The notes: generated by a model not told the origin, from the sequence alone. A stretch of 64,000 nt of DNA from an uncultured Rubrobacteraceae bacterium (GCA_902806095.1 CADCVF010000068.1:5440-69439), one strand, 5' to 3'. Shown: positions 10,209 through 25,358, numbered from the stretch's first letter. Translations and numbers: made by a program.

Positions 10209-11147
10209 TTAGCAGATACGTCCGCGTTTGCCCTCTGGACCGTGGCCTACGGGAGCCTCCCCGATCCAACGCTCGTCCACGGGCTCTGAGGCGAGTTGGT
10301 AGCGCGAGTCGGAGGAGAGCCTGATCCTCTCAGCGCGGTTGTCGAGGCTCGCGTGGATGGTGTGAGTGTCGAACGTGAGGAGATCCCCTGCCCTGTACTC
10401 GGCCGTGAGCCATCTCCCCCCAAGTTGCTCGCGCAATTCCACAGGGTCTTCTGAGACGCTGCCATCCCACCGCCAGCCGTGCGTATCCTGGTTTGTCCTG
10501 GCGTACTCCTCCTCGCCTTCCAGGTTCTCGCAGTACTCGTCAACGTCCCTCGCCAGGTACTCCTCGCGCACACTCCGGAGGCGATGCGAGCCTTCGAGGA
10601 TGATCAGGCCCCCGAGCTGGAAGTCGATGTCTCCCAGCGGAGTCCACGCGGTATAAAGGTCGTGCGTCCCACGCCCCATGAACACTATGTCCCCGTGTGG
10701 TTGGGTGCCATAGCCTGGTGCCACAGCCCTCATCCAGGTGAAGTCGTAGTGGCGTACGGGGCCGCCGAGGAACCGCTCGTAGAACTCCATCATGGGCCCG
10801 CTGTACAGCAAGCGGTGCAGCGGCTCGTTGTCGTGGGCGAGATCAGGCTTGAACTTGAGCCCCGAGTCAGGATGCGCCACAGCCTCATCGGCGGAATATC
10901 CCGGGGCCGTGAGCCCTTCTGCGGCGAGCCTCTCGGTAACGCTCTTTCTGGCTCTGAGGACCAGATCCCGGTCCAAATAGCCAGGCAGGTAGAGGTACCC
11001 ATCCTCGGCCATCCTTTCCCTGAGATCTCCGGTGTCTTCGATGACGTCCGTCGAGCTCCTGAGCAGGCCGAAGCTTTCGGCGGACGTGTCGAGCTTCAGG
11101 CCCTGCGAGGTCAATTTCGGGAGTGTCGGGTTTCTCACTGCTATCAC
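10209..11147 (-). CDS. Phytanoyl-CoA dioxygenase (PhyH)-family Fe(II)/2-oxoglutarate dioxygenase
   Basis: DGYLYLPG N-terminus, HxD motif (PHGD), TAWTPLGD, distal His in TIHAS, R-S in IRLSSD. Confidence 0.88.
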   Translation of the reverse strand: MIAVRNPTLPKLTSQGLKLDTSAESFGLLRSSTDVIEDTGDLRERMAEDGYLYLPGYLDRDLVLRARKSVTERLAAEGLTAPGYSADEAVAHPDSGLKFKPDLAHDNEPLHRLLYSGPMMEFYERFLGGPVRHYDFTWMRAVAPGYGTQPHGDIVFMGRGTHDLYTAWTPLGDIDFQLGGLIILEGSHRLRSVREEYLARDVDEYCENLEGEEEYARTNQDTHGWRWDGSVSEDPVELREQLGGRWLTAEYRAGDLLTFDTHTIHASLDNRAERIRLSSDSRYQLASEPVDERWIGEAPVGHGPEGKRGRIC

Positions 11148-11178
11148 CTCTGGTTGGTTGTATCGCTACGGTACATGG

Positions 11179-12495
11179 CTATACGCGACCCGCTCCTGCG
11201 CCTGAGATCCTTACGCCCTCGGGCATGGCTTCGCCGTGGGCTTCTATGAGCTCGTCCACCATGCCGGCTATCTCGTCGAGAGATAGGACGCTCGAGGCGT
11301 GGCGGTCGAGCATTGCGGCATGATAGACGTGGTCCCGTCTGCCCTCCAGCGCCGCCCTGATCGTAAGGTTCTGGACCGCCGTGTGCGGGGCGCAGGTCGC
11401 CGCGCACTGCGGCGGAAGGTCACCGACGTAGCAAGGACGCAGACCGGTATCGTCTACCAGGATCGGCACTTCGACACAGCAACCTTCTGGTAGGTTCGTA
11501 ACGAGGCCCGTGTTCCTGACGTTGCCGTATATTGCTCGCGCCTCGCCGGTGACGAGCGAGTGCATTATGAGGGAGCCGTACTCGACGCTGCGACCCAGCG
11601 AGAAGTCCTCTCCCGCGAGCAGCATGCGACGGGTCTCAGCGTACTGGACGAGGTTCTCCTCGCTACGCCTTACATACTCGTCTACAGGCACGTCGTAACG
11701 CTCGATGAGCCCATCGTCCTTGAGGAAGTAAGGTACGTACTCGGCGTTGTGCTCGCTCGACTCAGTGACGAAGTACCCGAAGCGGCGCATCAACTCGAAG
11801 CGCACCTTGTCTTTGGCGTACACGTCAGGGTCCTCCATCGCCGCGAACAGCCGCGGGTAAGCGTCCACGCCTTCGAGCTCGAGGCGCGTCATCCAGGCGA
11901 TGTGGTTGATGCCGGCGCACTCGTAGATAAGTTCCTCATGCTCCACCCCGATATACGAGGCTATCTCGCGGGCGGTGTATGGGACGCTGTGGCAGAGCCC
12001 GACGCTCTTCGTTTCTGGGCTCGCGATGTACAGCGCCTCTATGAGGATGCTCATGGGGTTCGTGTAGTTCAGTAGCAGCGCATTCGGGCACAAGTCGCCC
12101 ATCTCGCCGGCAAGGTCGAGCACGAACGGGATGGTGCGCAGCCCGCGGAAGATGCCGCCGATGCCCATCGAGTCGGCGATCGTCTGCTTGAGGCCGTACT
12201 TCTTGGGGATCTCGAAGTCGAGGAGGGTGGCCTCGTGCATGCCGATCTGGACCATGTTCACGACGAAGTCGGCCCCATCTAGCGCCCTTCGCCGGTCGAG
12301 ATGTTCCTCGACCTTCGCGCCTGCGCCGAGCTGGTCCGAAGTCCAGCGGGCCATCATGCCGGCGGTCTCGAGGCGCTCGGGGTCTATGTCATGGAGGGCG
12401 ATGGTGGTCCCTCGCAGCTCCGGGAAGCTCAGTATGTCGGTTAGCAGACTCTTGGTGAAGACGACGCTACCCGCGCCGATAAAGGCTACCTTCAA
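11179..12495 (-). CDS. NAD+-dependent glycoside hydrolase family 4 (alpha-galactosidase/alpha-glucosidase type)
   Basis: KVAFIGAGSVVF Rossmann start (TTG 12495; track extends to 12522), ALDGADFV, LNYTNP, GLCHSV, GINHIAW, TESSEH. Confidence 0.93.
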   Translation of the reverse strand: MKVAFIGAGSVVFTKSLLTDILSFPELRGTTIALHDIDPERLETAGMMARWTSDQLGAGAKVEEHLDRRRALDGADFVVNMVQIGMHEATLLDFEIPKKYGLKQTIADSMGIGGIFRGLRTIPFVLDLAGEMGDLCPNALLLNYTNPMSILIEALYIASPETKSVGLCHSVPYTAREIASYIGVEHEELIYECAGINHIAWMTRLELEGVDAYPRLFAAMEDPDVYAKDKVRFELMRRFGYFVTESSEHNAEYVPYFLKDDGLIERYDVPVDEYVRRSEENLVQYAETRRMLLAGEDFSLGRSVEYGSLIMHSLVTGEARAIYGNVRNTGLVTNLPEGCCVEVPILVDDTGLRPCYVGDLPPQCAATCAPHTAVQNLTIRAALEGRRDHVYHAAMLDRHASSVLSLDEIAGMVDELIEAHGEAMPEGVRISGAGAGRV

Positions 12496-12544
12496 GGTAA
12501 GATCCTTTCTCTGAAAGCGCAACTTGCAATCTCTAGGACACAGG

Positions 12545-24024: not shown

Positions 24025-24028
24025 TGAA

Positions 24029-24089
24029 TCAGCAATTCAGCACGCTCAGGCTTCGCCTTCGCTTGTCAGCACTTCAGCTTGTCAGCTTT
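24029..24089. repeat. TCAGCA-family intergenic repeat, copy 1
   Basis: TCAGCACGCTCAGGCTTCGCCTTCGCTTGTCAGCACTTCAGCTTGTCAGCTTT; 33/34 identical to reverse complement of 27913-27946. Confidence 0.85.
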
Positions 24090-24251
24090 TTGGTTTCGCT
24101 TATAGCCGTATGATCCAGCATGCGTTACGAGATCGCATACGCTCTCTATCTTGGAACGATTGTTTCCGGGGGATGCTGCTGATATGGTTGCAGGGGTATG
24201 CCGACTCGAGTTCGGTCTTGACCAACGAGAATTTGTGTGAAGGAGTGAGGC

Positions 24252-25358
24252 GTGGTTACTAGCGCACGGAGATCAAGCACCGGCACCGGAAGTTCGGAGC
24301 AGTACAGGGTTTCTGTCGATGAGTACAAGGCCTTCAGGCAGCAGGGTTTCCTGGTGGTGCGGGGACTCTTGGGGCCAGATGAGATAGAGGAGTTGCGCGG
24401 GCACACGGAGCTCCTGATGCAGGGACGGTTGCCGGAGCAGGTGGGGACGATGTCGGAGAGGGACCCCGGCTCTGATTCGGGTACCACGGGGCAGGCACTG
24501 GAGGCGCCCCCCAACCACCTCTCGCCCGAAGAGAAGGCGCAATACTTCCTGCGGGTACACATGCTGCACCGCAAGCTGGAATTGCACGAACGATATCTGC
24601 TCCATCCAGGGGTGATCGACGTGCTGGAAGCCCTGATCGGACCCGACGTGCTGGCGCTTCAGACCATGCTCTTCCTCAAGCCGCCGGGCAAGCCTGGGCA
24701 GGGCTGGCACCAGGACTCCTACTACATCCCGACCCACCCCGACACGCTGTGCGGGGCCTGGTTCGCCATAGACGACGCGGACGAGTTGAACGGCGCGATG
24801 TGGATGGCCGCGGGGAGCCAGAACGAGCCCGTCTACCCGCCAAGAGAAGGCTACGGCCACGGCGACGGGCGACTCGAGGGGATAGAGCATATCAGCGGGG
24901 CGAGCGATCCCGACGACGACGCTAACGATCTCAGCAGGATCGCCGACCGCTACCCGCAGCTCCTCGCTCCGGTCGAGGCCGGCGACGTGGTCTTCTTCGG
25001 CGGCCACGTACTTCACCGCAGCAAGGATAACTTCACCACCGACCGCTTCCGGCGTGCCTTCGTCGGCCATTACTGCAACGCCCGCTCGTTCACCCAGTGG
25101 GGCGCGAACCACGACGATGACGACCCGCACACAGCGCCGAGCGTTGACCCTGAAACGAAGATGACGAACGGATCCCACATCCTCGCCCGCGGGGACACGC
25201 ATCTCCCCTTCGCGAAACCGACTTTCGGCACCCCGTGCGCGGCCCTTCTGCCCGCCGAGGAGCGGCGCAAGGAGAGCGAGTACGCCGCCGCCATGATGGC
25301 CGATATGGACAGCGACGATATGGGAGCAAAGCCCGCAGATCCCGAGGTCGAACACTAG
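24252..25358 (+). CDS. PhyH-family Fe(II)/2-oxoglutarate dioxygenase
   Basis: QGFLVV, FLKPPG, WHQD, GAWFAID, VLHRS, RRAF; acidic C-terminal extension. Confidence 0.92.
   Translation: MVTSARRSSTGTGSSEQYRVSVDEYKAFRQQGFLVVRGLLGPDEIEELRGHTELLMQGRLPEQVGTMSERDPGSDSGTTGQALEAPPNHLSPEEKAQYFLRVHMLHRKLELHERYLLHPGVIDVLEALIGPDVLALQTMLFLKPPGKPGQGWHQDSYYIPTHPDTLCGAWFAIDDADELNGAMWMAAGSQNEPVYPPREGYGHGDGRLEGIEHISGASDPDDDANDLSRIADRYPQLLAPVEAGDVVFFGGHVLHRSKDNFTTDRFRRAFVGHYCNARSFTQWGANHDDDDPHTAPSVDPETKMTNGSHILARGDTHLPFAKPTFGTPCAALLPAEERRKESEYAAAMMADMDSDDMGAKPADPEVEH

Follow-up and report, generated by a model that had tools for sequence, protein, structure and literature searches.

Three genes of the PhyH family (PF05721), found in a 64,000-nucleotide stretch of DNA from an uncultured Rubrobacteraceae bacterium (GCA_902806095.1, CADCVF010000068.1:5440-69439; referred to as the window), represent three separate and strongly conserved orthogroups without a characterized member, and their products (PhyH-A, PhyH-B, and PhyH-C) are predicted to be cytoplasmic Fe(II)/2-oxoglutarate (2OG) hydroxylases. 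In Rubrobacter, all three are built into one accessory sugar island. In most lineages, the gene context suggests that each enzyme forms an inducible unit of its own, controlled by an AraC-type regulator and often encoded beside a solute importer. From this context, the substrate may quite possibly be an imported sugar- or cyclitol-like solute; O-demethylation as the specific chemistry, suggested by analogy with known enzymes, would be a tentative and rather unlikely assignment. Few oxygenase families of soil and symbiont bacteria are as large and as poorly understood as PF05721, and methyl, amino, and other blocking groups shield many natural sugars and cyclitols from ordinary glycosidases and kinases. 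The enzyme class and its chemistry are already known, while neither the three orthogroups and their co-occurrence nor the way in which they are inserted into sugar operons has been described before; in the literature, no paper was found that placed PhyH-family oxygenases in glycoside operons or catabolism.

Catalytic residues, fold, and family assignment

PhyH-A, PhyH-B, and PhyH-C all matched PF05721 above the gathering cut-off of 22 bits: 43.3 bits (E 6.5e-11), 116.4 bits (E 2.9e-33; open reading frame (ORF) 17665-18543), and 126.4 bits (E 2.6e-36), respectively. An antisense ORF opposite PhyH-C (24273-25355) had no Pfam match. The iron ligands were intact: H151-G-D153...H265 in PhyH-A (with R276 as the 2OG arginine), HQD...LVHGS in PhyH-B, and H153-Q-D155...H255 in PhyH-C (with R267/R268), and in all three translations the 2OG-binding arginine was located ~11 residues past the distal histidine. 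H151, D153, H265, and R276 were invariant across 32 PhyH-A homologues from about 10 phyla, as were H153, D155, H255, and R267/R268 across 26 PhyH-C homologues. Homologues of PhyH-A, PhyH-B, and PhyH-C consisted of 309-312, 268-269, and 368-375 amino acid residues, respectively, so that PhyH-B starts at 18471 and not with the longer ORF to 18543. Together with the Pfam matches and ligands, these lengths upheld the coordinates and HxD...H motifs that an earlier note on this DNA had assigned to the three genes. No signal peptide was found in PhyH-A, PhyH-B, or PhyH-C.

The AlphaFold2 model of PhyH-A had a predicted local distance difference test (pLDDT) score of 85.8 and a predicted template modeling (pTM) score of 0.86. 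Its top 50 fold matches in the PDB were all PhyH-type Fe/2OG oxygenases, with the double-stranded β-helix fold. The best of them was PtlH (Foldseek E 2e-16; TM 0.64/0.75), also the best sequence match of PhyH-A in the PDB (E 1.9e-9), followed in the fold search by SnoN and SnoK. PtlH is 1-deoxypentalenic acid 11-β-hydroxylase. The best sequence matches of PhyH-B and PhyH-C were PHYHD1 and PHYH (~1e-13). The fold assessment refers to PhyH-A alone, since the model of PhyH-C (pLDDT 52) was unusable for a fold search, probably from low alignment diversity.

No curated NCBIfam equivalog model was passed by any of the three proteins. PhyH-A scored 50 bits with the PtlH model (NF045813; cut-off 550), and PhyH-B scored 38.5 bits with the PhnY-type model (NF052437; cut-off 500); no HD-phosphohydrolase, the phnZ partner of the PhnY type, was found among the scanned neighbors. 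Identity as an ectoine hydroxylase (EctD) was likewise rejected: TIGR02408 gave 48 bits for PhyH-B vs. 336.5, and no match for PhyH-A and PhyH-C. Halogenases of the SyrB2/CytC3 type carry HxA/G where hydroxylases have HxD; all three proteins keep the Asp, and the scores with TIGR01762 were 56 and 41 bits vs. 226.

In the PhyH-A family, 51 columns were invariant in the 32 sequences, and the invariant residues other than the ligands were mostly polar or aromatic (W, R, D, N, Y, and Q), which we read as suiting a polar substrate. This family ends with KRGxIC, the Cys being the last residue, in 32 of 32 sequences (10209-10226 in the window), and a second invariant Cys (C206) lies within DVDxYCxN. 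The KRGxIC tail was of low confidence in the model (pLDDT <50), and might close over the active site, or else serve as a binding site for a metal or a partner. PhyH-C possesses a C-terminal extension of ~90 amino acid residues that is conserved among its orthologues.

Clustering and phylogenetic distribution

The whole genome (3.83 Mb, 98.6% complete) had exactly three PF05721 genes, PhyH-A, PhyH-B, and PhyH-C, all inside 15.2 kb. Since the random placement of three genes that close has a probability of about 5e-5 (~3 x (15.2/3830)^2), this clustering exceeds chance. The three genes are not recent duplicates, judging from their low mutual identity: 30% between PhyH-B and PhyH-C, and ~25% between PhyH-A and either.

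Each of the three belonged to a separate orthogroup conserved at 50-78% identity across phyla. PhyH-A orthologues (50-66%) were found in Actinopolymorpha, Thermomicrobiales, Abditibacteriaceae, Caldilineaceae, Verrucomicrobiota, Latescibacterota, Gemmatimonadaceae, Spirochaetota, and Acidobacteriaceae; PhyH-B orthologues (70-77%) in Ktedonobacteria and Thermomicrobiales; and PhyH-C orthologues (64-78%; mean column identity, 70%) in Chloroflexota, Armatimonadota (Capsulimonas and Abditibacteriaceae), and Acidobacteriota. The strength of this conservation suggests one precise function per orthogroup.

Among 201 evenly sampled Chloroflexota genomes (E up to 1e-60), PhyH-A, PhyH-B, and PhyH-C were present in 11, 16, and 8, respectively. 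PhyH-A and PhyH-B occurred together in 10 (Fisher p 3.6e-12), PhyH-A and PhyH-C in 5 (p 9e-6), PhyH-B and PhyH-C in 6 (p 2e-6), and all three in 4 of the 201. The co-occurrence signal was strong, though inflated to some degree; the tests take no account of phylogeny, and some of these genomes hold numerous PhyH-like candidates.

PF05721 was expanded in Armatimonadota: 22 genes in Capsulimonas corticalis (G301) and 45 in a metagenome-assembled genome (MAG) of Abditibacteriaceae (G303). The copies were often tandem or clustered (e.g., contigs C36, C43, and C44 of G303), and the expansion was on par with that in Poribacteria, in which the PhyH domain is found in >1.9% of genes and its expansion in carbohydrate degraders is unexplained (Kamke et al. 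2014, PMC3909097). Tandem pairs of A-like PhyH genes, 44-45% identical to PhyH-A, were found in Chloroflexota (G437:C2:493513-495728 and G383:C9:82349-84567).

Organization of the sugar island

The sugar-utilization island comprised the first ~43 kb of the window (Pfam scans), and contained three CUT1 importers, seven glycoside hydrolase (GH) genes, and ten oxidoreductase-type genes in total (Table 1). As the earlier note had described, the PhyH genes were interleaved with GH4, GH36-like, and GH63-like genes and sugar importers, and the first acyl-CoA-type gene (AMP-binding) appeared only from 43.2 kb onward. Both GH4 proteins were α-galactosidases of the MelA type, their scores of 594 and 585 bits exceeding the PRK15076 cut-off of 486, and the middle of the island therefore carries a galactoside theme. 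The block of Gfo/Idh/MocA, ThuA, TIM-barrel, and aldo-keto reductase genes was of the 3-keto-sugar or cyclitol type.

Table 1. Features of the sugar island in the window (SBP, solute-binding protein; aa, amino acid residues).
Feature	Position	Strand	Basis
GH5	2-1255	-	Pfam
CUT1 importer, first of three	1292-4447	-	Pfam
GH42 β-galactosidase	4692-6707	-	Pfam
CUT1 importer, second (permeases 6798-7730 and 7679-8632; SBP 8679-10106)	6798-10106	-	Pfam
PhyH-A, 312 aa	10209-11147	-	PF05721
GH4 α-galactosidase	11179-12522	-	Pfam and NCBIfam PRK15076
GH36-like	12545-14305	-	weak "Melibiase" match, E 1.4e-9
GH4 α-galactosidase, second	14312-15634	-	Pfam and NCBIfam PRK15076
MsbA-type ABC exporter	15732-17471	-	Pfam and NCBIfam
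PhyH-B, 268 aa	17665-18471	-	PF05721
Small PLA2-like ORF	18509-19129	-	PF00068, E 6.6e-7, 30.3 bits, under the 32.1 cut-off
GH63/MGH1-like hydrolase	19190-20725	-	Pfam
CUT1 importer, third (permeases 20762-21643 and 21671-22582; Tat-signal SBP 22619-23953)	20762-23953	-	Pfam
PhyH-C, 368 aa	24252-25358	+	PF05721
DUF624 (YesL-like) membrane protein	25235-25987	+	PF04854, E 1.3e-22
Block of five Gfo/Idh/MocA, two ThuA, two TIM-barrel, and one aldo-keto reductase	25991-35688	-	Pfam
Two further aldo-keto reductases, SSF symporter, and GH38	up to 43107		Pfam

The co-directional arrays holding PhyH genes had intergenic gaps of 32-194 bp. PhyH-A was the terminal gene behind GH4-GH36-like-GH4, 103 bp upstream of the SBP gene of a CUT1 importer, and PhyH-B was the terminal gene behind SBP-permease-permease-GH63-like-PLA2-like. 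PhyH-C diverged from the GH63 operon, with the DUF624 gene next downstream; because the DUF624 ORF overlaps the end of PhyH-C, its real start is probably further downstream. A promoter-like site ahead of the second CUT1 importer (10165-10137) and a terminator-like hairpin past PhyH-B (17551-17532), both of them consensus matches only, were consistent with this layout of units; as such matches were no commoner than in shuffled sequence, the operon boundaries are suggestions only. Among the scanned ORFs of the island (1-43107; small ORFs partly covered), there was no transcription regulator, and no ATPase gene near any of the three CUT1 systems.

The top named match for PhyH-A was from Rubrobacter tropicus. 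In a congener with a 4.38-Mb chromosome (G541), PhyH-A was 77% identical and the island proteins 70-86%, in the order SBP-permease-permease-GH63-x-PhyH-B-x-GH4-GH4-PhyH-A-SBP-permease-permease-GH42, with PhyH-C 2.4 kb past that array. The core arrangement recurred in a pair of Rubrobacteraceae MAGs and in some ten contigs from metagenomes. Across the congener and these relatives, the order of the second CUT1 importer and GH42 was kept in G541 and L001-L003, the unit of the third CUT1 importer and GH63-like gene with PhyH-B in L002, L003, L102, and G541, and DUF624 adjoining PhyH-C in Rubrobacter-like metagenome contigs L097-L103. The GH36-like gene and the MsbA-type exporter were variable inserts, the former missing in L002 and G541 and the latter missing at this position in the same two. 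In these, PhyH-B was followed by two GH4 genes, directly or after about 1.2 kb, and there was a ~1-kb gap where the window has the PLA2-like ORF. PhyH-A was present in 4 of 8 genomes of the genus and PhyH-B in 6 of 301 sampled Actinomycetota; this patchy presence, together with the kept order, indicates a conserved yet accessory island.

The content of this array also bears on a different role, in which the oxygenases would hydroxylate non-sugar aglycones (terpenoid or phenolic) released by the glycosidases, for detoxification or breakdown. GH4 and GH36-like genes and an MsbA-type exporter stand in the same array, PhyH-A has the sesquiterpenoid hydroxylase PtlH as its best match, and many of its top folds are meroterpenoid or alkaloid oxygenases. 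On the other hand, the PtlH match is remote (24% identity; 50 bits against the cut-off of 550), the invariant positions of family A hold mainly polar residues, the exporter is missing from some relatives, and the contexts of importer plus PhyH without a hydrolase (see below) require no aglycone release. We consider this role very unlikely, and an imported sugar- or cyclitol-like substrate remains our preferred reading.

Gene neighborhoods outside Rubrobacteraceae

The nearest ORFs of dereplicated loci (28 for PhyH-A, 12 for PhyH-B, and 36 for PhyH-C) were scanned with Pfam, within two ORFs on either side for PhyH-A and PhyH-C and within three for PhyH-B. The commonest neighbors of PhyH-A were another PhyH (8), AraC (6), SBP_bac_1 (4), NamZ (3), PfkB (2), Gfo (2), GH92 (1), and fucose isomerase (1); those of PhyH-C were AraC (7), aldehyde dehydrogenase (3), TIM barrel (3), Gfo (2), rhamnose mutarotase (2), and PhyH (2); and those of PhyH-B were AraC (3), MFS (3), SBP_bac_1 (2), and permease (2), the remainder being housekeeping genes. 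A divergent AraC regulator was found at 21% of loci, and the usual unit consisted of one PhyH gene and a divergent AraC gene. AraC was enriched in near ORFs (16/304) relative to distal ORFs (at most 1/129; p 0.003-0.018). This control comprised 129 ORFs of the same loci, at a distance of 5.5 kb or more, which were shorter and probably more often spurious; none of the neighbor families above was among the 25 commonest families listed for them. Other recurring neighbors were a second PhyH gene and solute importers (CUT1, SBP_bac_5, SSF, and MFS), and occasional ones were Gfo/TIM/ThuA genes, a galactokinase-like gene, and aldehyde dehydrogenase.

The recurring linkage of PhyH with GH4 and CUT1 anticipated in the earlier note was found in Rubrobacteraceae and one Thermomicrobiales lineage, and not in the other dereplicated loci. 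GH4 was within 10 kb of a PhyH-A orthologue only in Rubrobacteraceae and Thermomicrobiales L074. When window proteins were compared with 80 PhyH-A loci by tblastn, GH4 was detected in 4 and CUT1 permeases in 6, which ruled out a universal PhyH+GH4+CUT1 module. Enrichment of the homologues next to carbohydrate-active enzymes (CAZymes), on which the same note had staked its proposal, was largely absent, and by that yardstick the linkage to CAZymes fails as a general rule.

In the window, L074/L177, L075, and L182, a PhyH-A or A-like gene immediately adjoined a CUT1 importer, and the SBPs of these importers fell into at least four unrelated lineages. The SBPs were at most 32% identical between lineages, which excludes a single conserved CUT1 partner of PhyH-A, and the association with importers therefore arose more than once. 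PhyH-A or A-like genes also adjoined SBP_bac_5 (L176) and SSF plus Gfo (L016). Two Thermomicrobiales loci had a divergent AraC gene followed by PhyH-A and one importer: PhyH-A-SBP_bac_1-permease-permease without a hydrolase (L177), and PhyH-A-SBP-permease-permease beside LacI, GH4 (47% identical to that of the window), and ADP-ribosylglycohydrolase (L074). In an Opitutae MAG, Gfo and AraC genes were followed by PhyH-A-DUF455-SSF symporter-Gfo. The Chloroflexota locus L182 (G304:C101 8001-17889) contained, on one strand, a sugar-1-phosphate nucleotidyltransferase, a GHMP kinase with a galactokinase signature, a 531-residue protein without a Pfam match, permease-permease-SBP_bac_1, and two PhyH genes, one A-like (43% identity) and the other a PhyH-B orthologue (55%). 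This set of galactokinase-like, CUT1, A-like, and PhyH-B genes fits the galactoside theme of the window (GH4 and GH42).

PhyH-C also recurred beside sugar-type genes. Homologues of the Gfo/TIM/ThuA proteins of the window (39-51% identity) were encoded beside PhyH-C orthologues in unrelated contigs (L095, L117, L127/L129, and L143). L093 (8001-14220) carried a PhyH-C orthologue and, after it, a fused two-domain CUT1 permease (649 residues) and a GMC oxidoreductase with a Gluconate_2-dh3 small subunit; such an oxidoreductase-subunit pair is typical of FAD-dependent glucoside 3-dehydrogenases. PhyH-C was followed by a B-like PhyH gene (45%) and then a Gfo gene in Abditibacteriaceae, and Capsulimonas had the order AraC-PhyH-C-Peripla_BP_4-malectin protein. 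In L094 (1871-11556), the co-directional order was Gfo/Idh/MocA-GH81-ROK-PhyH (284 residues)-glyoxalase/VOC-PhyH-C orthologue (73%)-GH2; this was the clearest CAZyme-linked context of PhyH-C outside Rubrobacter. The ORFs downstream of PhyH-C in L172 and L138, considered as Hen1, were identified instead as a phosphohexomutase and an aldehyde dehydrogenase.

Two of the PhyH-A loci would suit an oxidative unblocking other than O-demethylation, namely, removal of sulfate esters (AtsK-like), of amino groups (KanJ-like deamination), or of acyl or ether links on imported oligosaccharides. Desulfation, oxidative deamination, and acyl or ether removal are all permitted by Fe/2OG chemistry and thus within its repertoire. 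The Actinopolymorpha locus contained a sulfatase and AraC-PhyH-SBP_bac_5-AraC-SBP_bac_5-PhyH-A (i.e., two AraC, two SBP_bac_5, and two PhyH genes, including the PhyH-A orthologue), and in L075 PhyH-A stood alongside an aminotransferase, an SDR, and an enolase-superfamily gene. However, AtsK belongs to the TauD family rather than to PhyH, KanJ was not retrieved (see below), and the window had no sulfatase or deaminase theme, and these chemistries appear improbable indeed.

The neighborhoods are also compatible with independent salvage or detoxification enzymes unrelated to the glycosides of the island, acting on 2'-O-methyl nucleosides, phosphonates, osmolytes, or xenobiotics, the island being a place where accessory genes merely accumulate. 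The usual context elsewhere, a lone PhyH gene with a divergent AraC or MerR gene and unrelated housekeeping neighbors, speaks for this view; PhyH-B and PhyH-C are nearest to PHYHD1, the substrates of which are free nucleosides (PMC12709175), and the island is accessory, as the counts for PhyH-A and PhyH-B given above indicate. Against this explanation stand the presence of all three PhyH genes of the genome in one island retained in a congener with 77% identity, and the position of each at the end of, or diverging from, a sugar operon with short gaps. Furthermore, adjacency to sugar-type importers, galactokinase, Gfo/TIM/ThuA, and GH genes recurred in other phyla, identity to the demethylases was just 21-29%, and no nucleoside transporter or nucleosidase was nearby. 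Salvage or detoxification is the main rival reading and, in our judgment, somewhat unlikely.

Proposed function and mechanism

For an imported sugar- or cyclitol-like substrate, we count the intact catalytic residues, the clustering of the three genes, the retention of the island in G541, the enrichment of AraC, the co-occurrence of PhyH-A, PhyH-B, and PhyH-C, the adjacency of importers, the position of PhyH-C beside sugar-type genes, the score of PhyH-B with PHYHD1-type sugar O-demethylases (see below), and the polar or aromatic character of most invariant residues in family A. Several observations weigh against it. GH genes were rare near the 28 PhyH-A, 12 PhyH-B, and 36 PhyH-C loci, and most orthologues had no CAZyme neighbor; PhyH-B orthologues typically stood alone with AraC or MerR; and CUT1 permeases were within 10 kb in 4 of 34 PhyH-A clusters, near the chance level that we estimate for saccharolytic genomes. 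The Fisher tests of co-occurrence ignore phylogeny and PhyH-rich lineages. The nearest structure to PhyH-A is that of a terpenoid hydroxylase (PtlH), and identity to any characterized enzyme was at most 29%. No dedicated formaldehyde-detoxification gene was recognized in the island. Oxidative glycoside processing, as proposed in the earlier note, thus survives in part: the PhyH genes are embedded in kept, co-directional glycoside operons and have some distant sugar contexts, but GH neighbors are rare elsewhere.

In the proposed mechanism, the CUT1 systems would import a modified galactoside, sugar, or cyclitol, and the oxygenase would hydroxylate the C-H adjacent to a blocking substituent, most plausibly O-methyl (or another O-alkyl). 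The resulting hemiacetal would collapse spontaneously, releasing formaldehyde and freeing the hydroxyl in the manner of FJS/PHYHD1 and of the P450 6-O-methyl-galactose demethylase (see below), and the unmasked product may then enter the α/β-galactosidase, galactokinase, or Gfo/ThuA/TIM routes. Candidates that would suit the galactoside and cyclitol character of the island are O-methyl-galactose, free or in glycosides, and methyl-inositols, e.g., pinitol released from galactosyl-cyclitols; a homologue of IolB/KduI was found elsewhere in the genome, on another contig.

At its most specific, this proposal would make PhyH-A, PhyH-B, and PhyH-C the founders of a family of Fe(II)/2OG oxygenases that "unmask" carbohydrates inside the cell, likely O-demethylases of methylated galactose, galactosides, or methyl-cyclitols (pinitol), which we regard as unlikely in this full form. 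If the enzymes are carbohydrate-active, the three orthogroups would bring to carbohydrate utilization an accessory activity that depends on oxygen and 2OG, provide a function for thousands of "phytanoyl-CoA dioxygenase family" annotations, and yield sugar demethylases or hydroxylases for biocatalysis that are simple and need no partner. To our knowledge, the sole enzyme class known so far to demethylate a sugar for catabolism is a P450 of marine Bacteroidota. The full proposal, if true, would also explain the large PhyH expansions in saccharolytic Armatimonadota, Poribacteria, and Chloroflexota. Through their inducers, the AraC-PhyH pairs offer a practical way to the substrates.

Comparison with known enzymes and systems

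FJS (from a soil metagenome), human PHYHD1, and their relatives from plants, fungi, viruses, and bacteria are PF05721 enzymes that release the 2'-O-methyl group of free nucleosides as formaldehyde, so that a ribose hydroxyl is oxidatively O-demethylated during catabolism (Stonkus et al., NAR 2025, PMC12709175). They are the most pertinent precedent for the window enzymes. The statement in the earlier note that no PhyH-family role in sugar catabolism is established is therefore partly outdated. With the sequences in the supplement of that article, which were machine-read and may contain errors, PhyH-B aligned over its full length with PHYHD1-type enzymes (Fadolivirus and tobacco) at 28-29% identity (E 5e-22; 82 and 72 bits), and the scores between the two known demethylase groups were lower (25-47 bits). 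It is accordingly a reasonable guess, as far as sequence comparison can suggest, that PhyH-B and PhyH-C O-dealkylate a sugar-like substrate. PhyH-C aligned with these enzymes at 21-25% identity, its best value with a tested demethylase being 26%; PhyH-A was barely related (33 bits), with 27% over a partial alignment at best. None of the three was orthologous to a tested FJS/PHYHD1 demethylase, PhyH-B and PhyH-C being family-level relatives only. The window enzymes have in common with FJS and PHYHD1 the Pfam family, the HxD...H triad, and a predicted 2OG dependence, but differ in their galactoside, CUT1, and Gfo contexts without nucleoside genes, and in the ~90-residue C-terminal extension of PhyH-C, which is missing from these demethylases.

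SnoK and SnoN, which act on an anthracycline amino-sugar in nogalamycin biosynthesis, resemble PhyH-A in fold and sequence. Together with PtlH, they differ as biosynthetic enzymes of antibiotic clusters with 19-24% identity, whereas the window had no biosynthetic genes. KanJ (kanamycin B dioxygenase) is also an Fe/2OG enzyme acting on an amino-sugar. The analogy with KanJ drawn in the earlier note did not extend to a specific relationship: KanJ was not retrieved by sequence from the PDB chains (E up to 0.01) with PhyH-A, PhyH-B, or PhyH-C, and was also missing from the 50 fold matches listed for PhyH-A.

The moc genes for the rhizopine 3-O-methyl-scyllo-inosamine comprise an SBP importer, MocA (Gfo/Idh/MocA), MocC (TIM-barrel), and a putative cyclitol-demethylating oxygenase. 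The parts found in the window form a comparable mix, the likeness being one of description only, and the moc oxygenase is of the Rieske or desaturase type (MocDE), not PhyH.

A parallel in logic is the P450 6-O-methyl-D-galactose demethylase of porphyran utilization loci, which releases formaldehyde (Reisky et al. 2018; PMC6292453). In both cases, an oxygenase in a glycan locus would strip O-methyl from galactose and open its normal catabolism. That enzyme is a haem protein with ferredoxin and reductase partners in the polysaccharide utilization loci of marine Bacteroidota, whereas the window enzymes are predicted to be Fe/2OG-dependent, partner-free, and cytoplasmic, and belong to Gram-positive-type ABC operons. 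The unmasking family, if true, would represent a partner-free terrestrial counterpart of the marine P450 demethylase.

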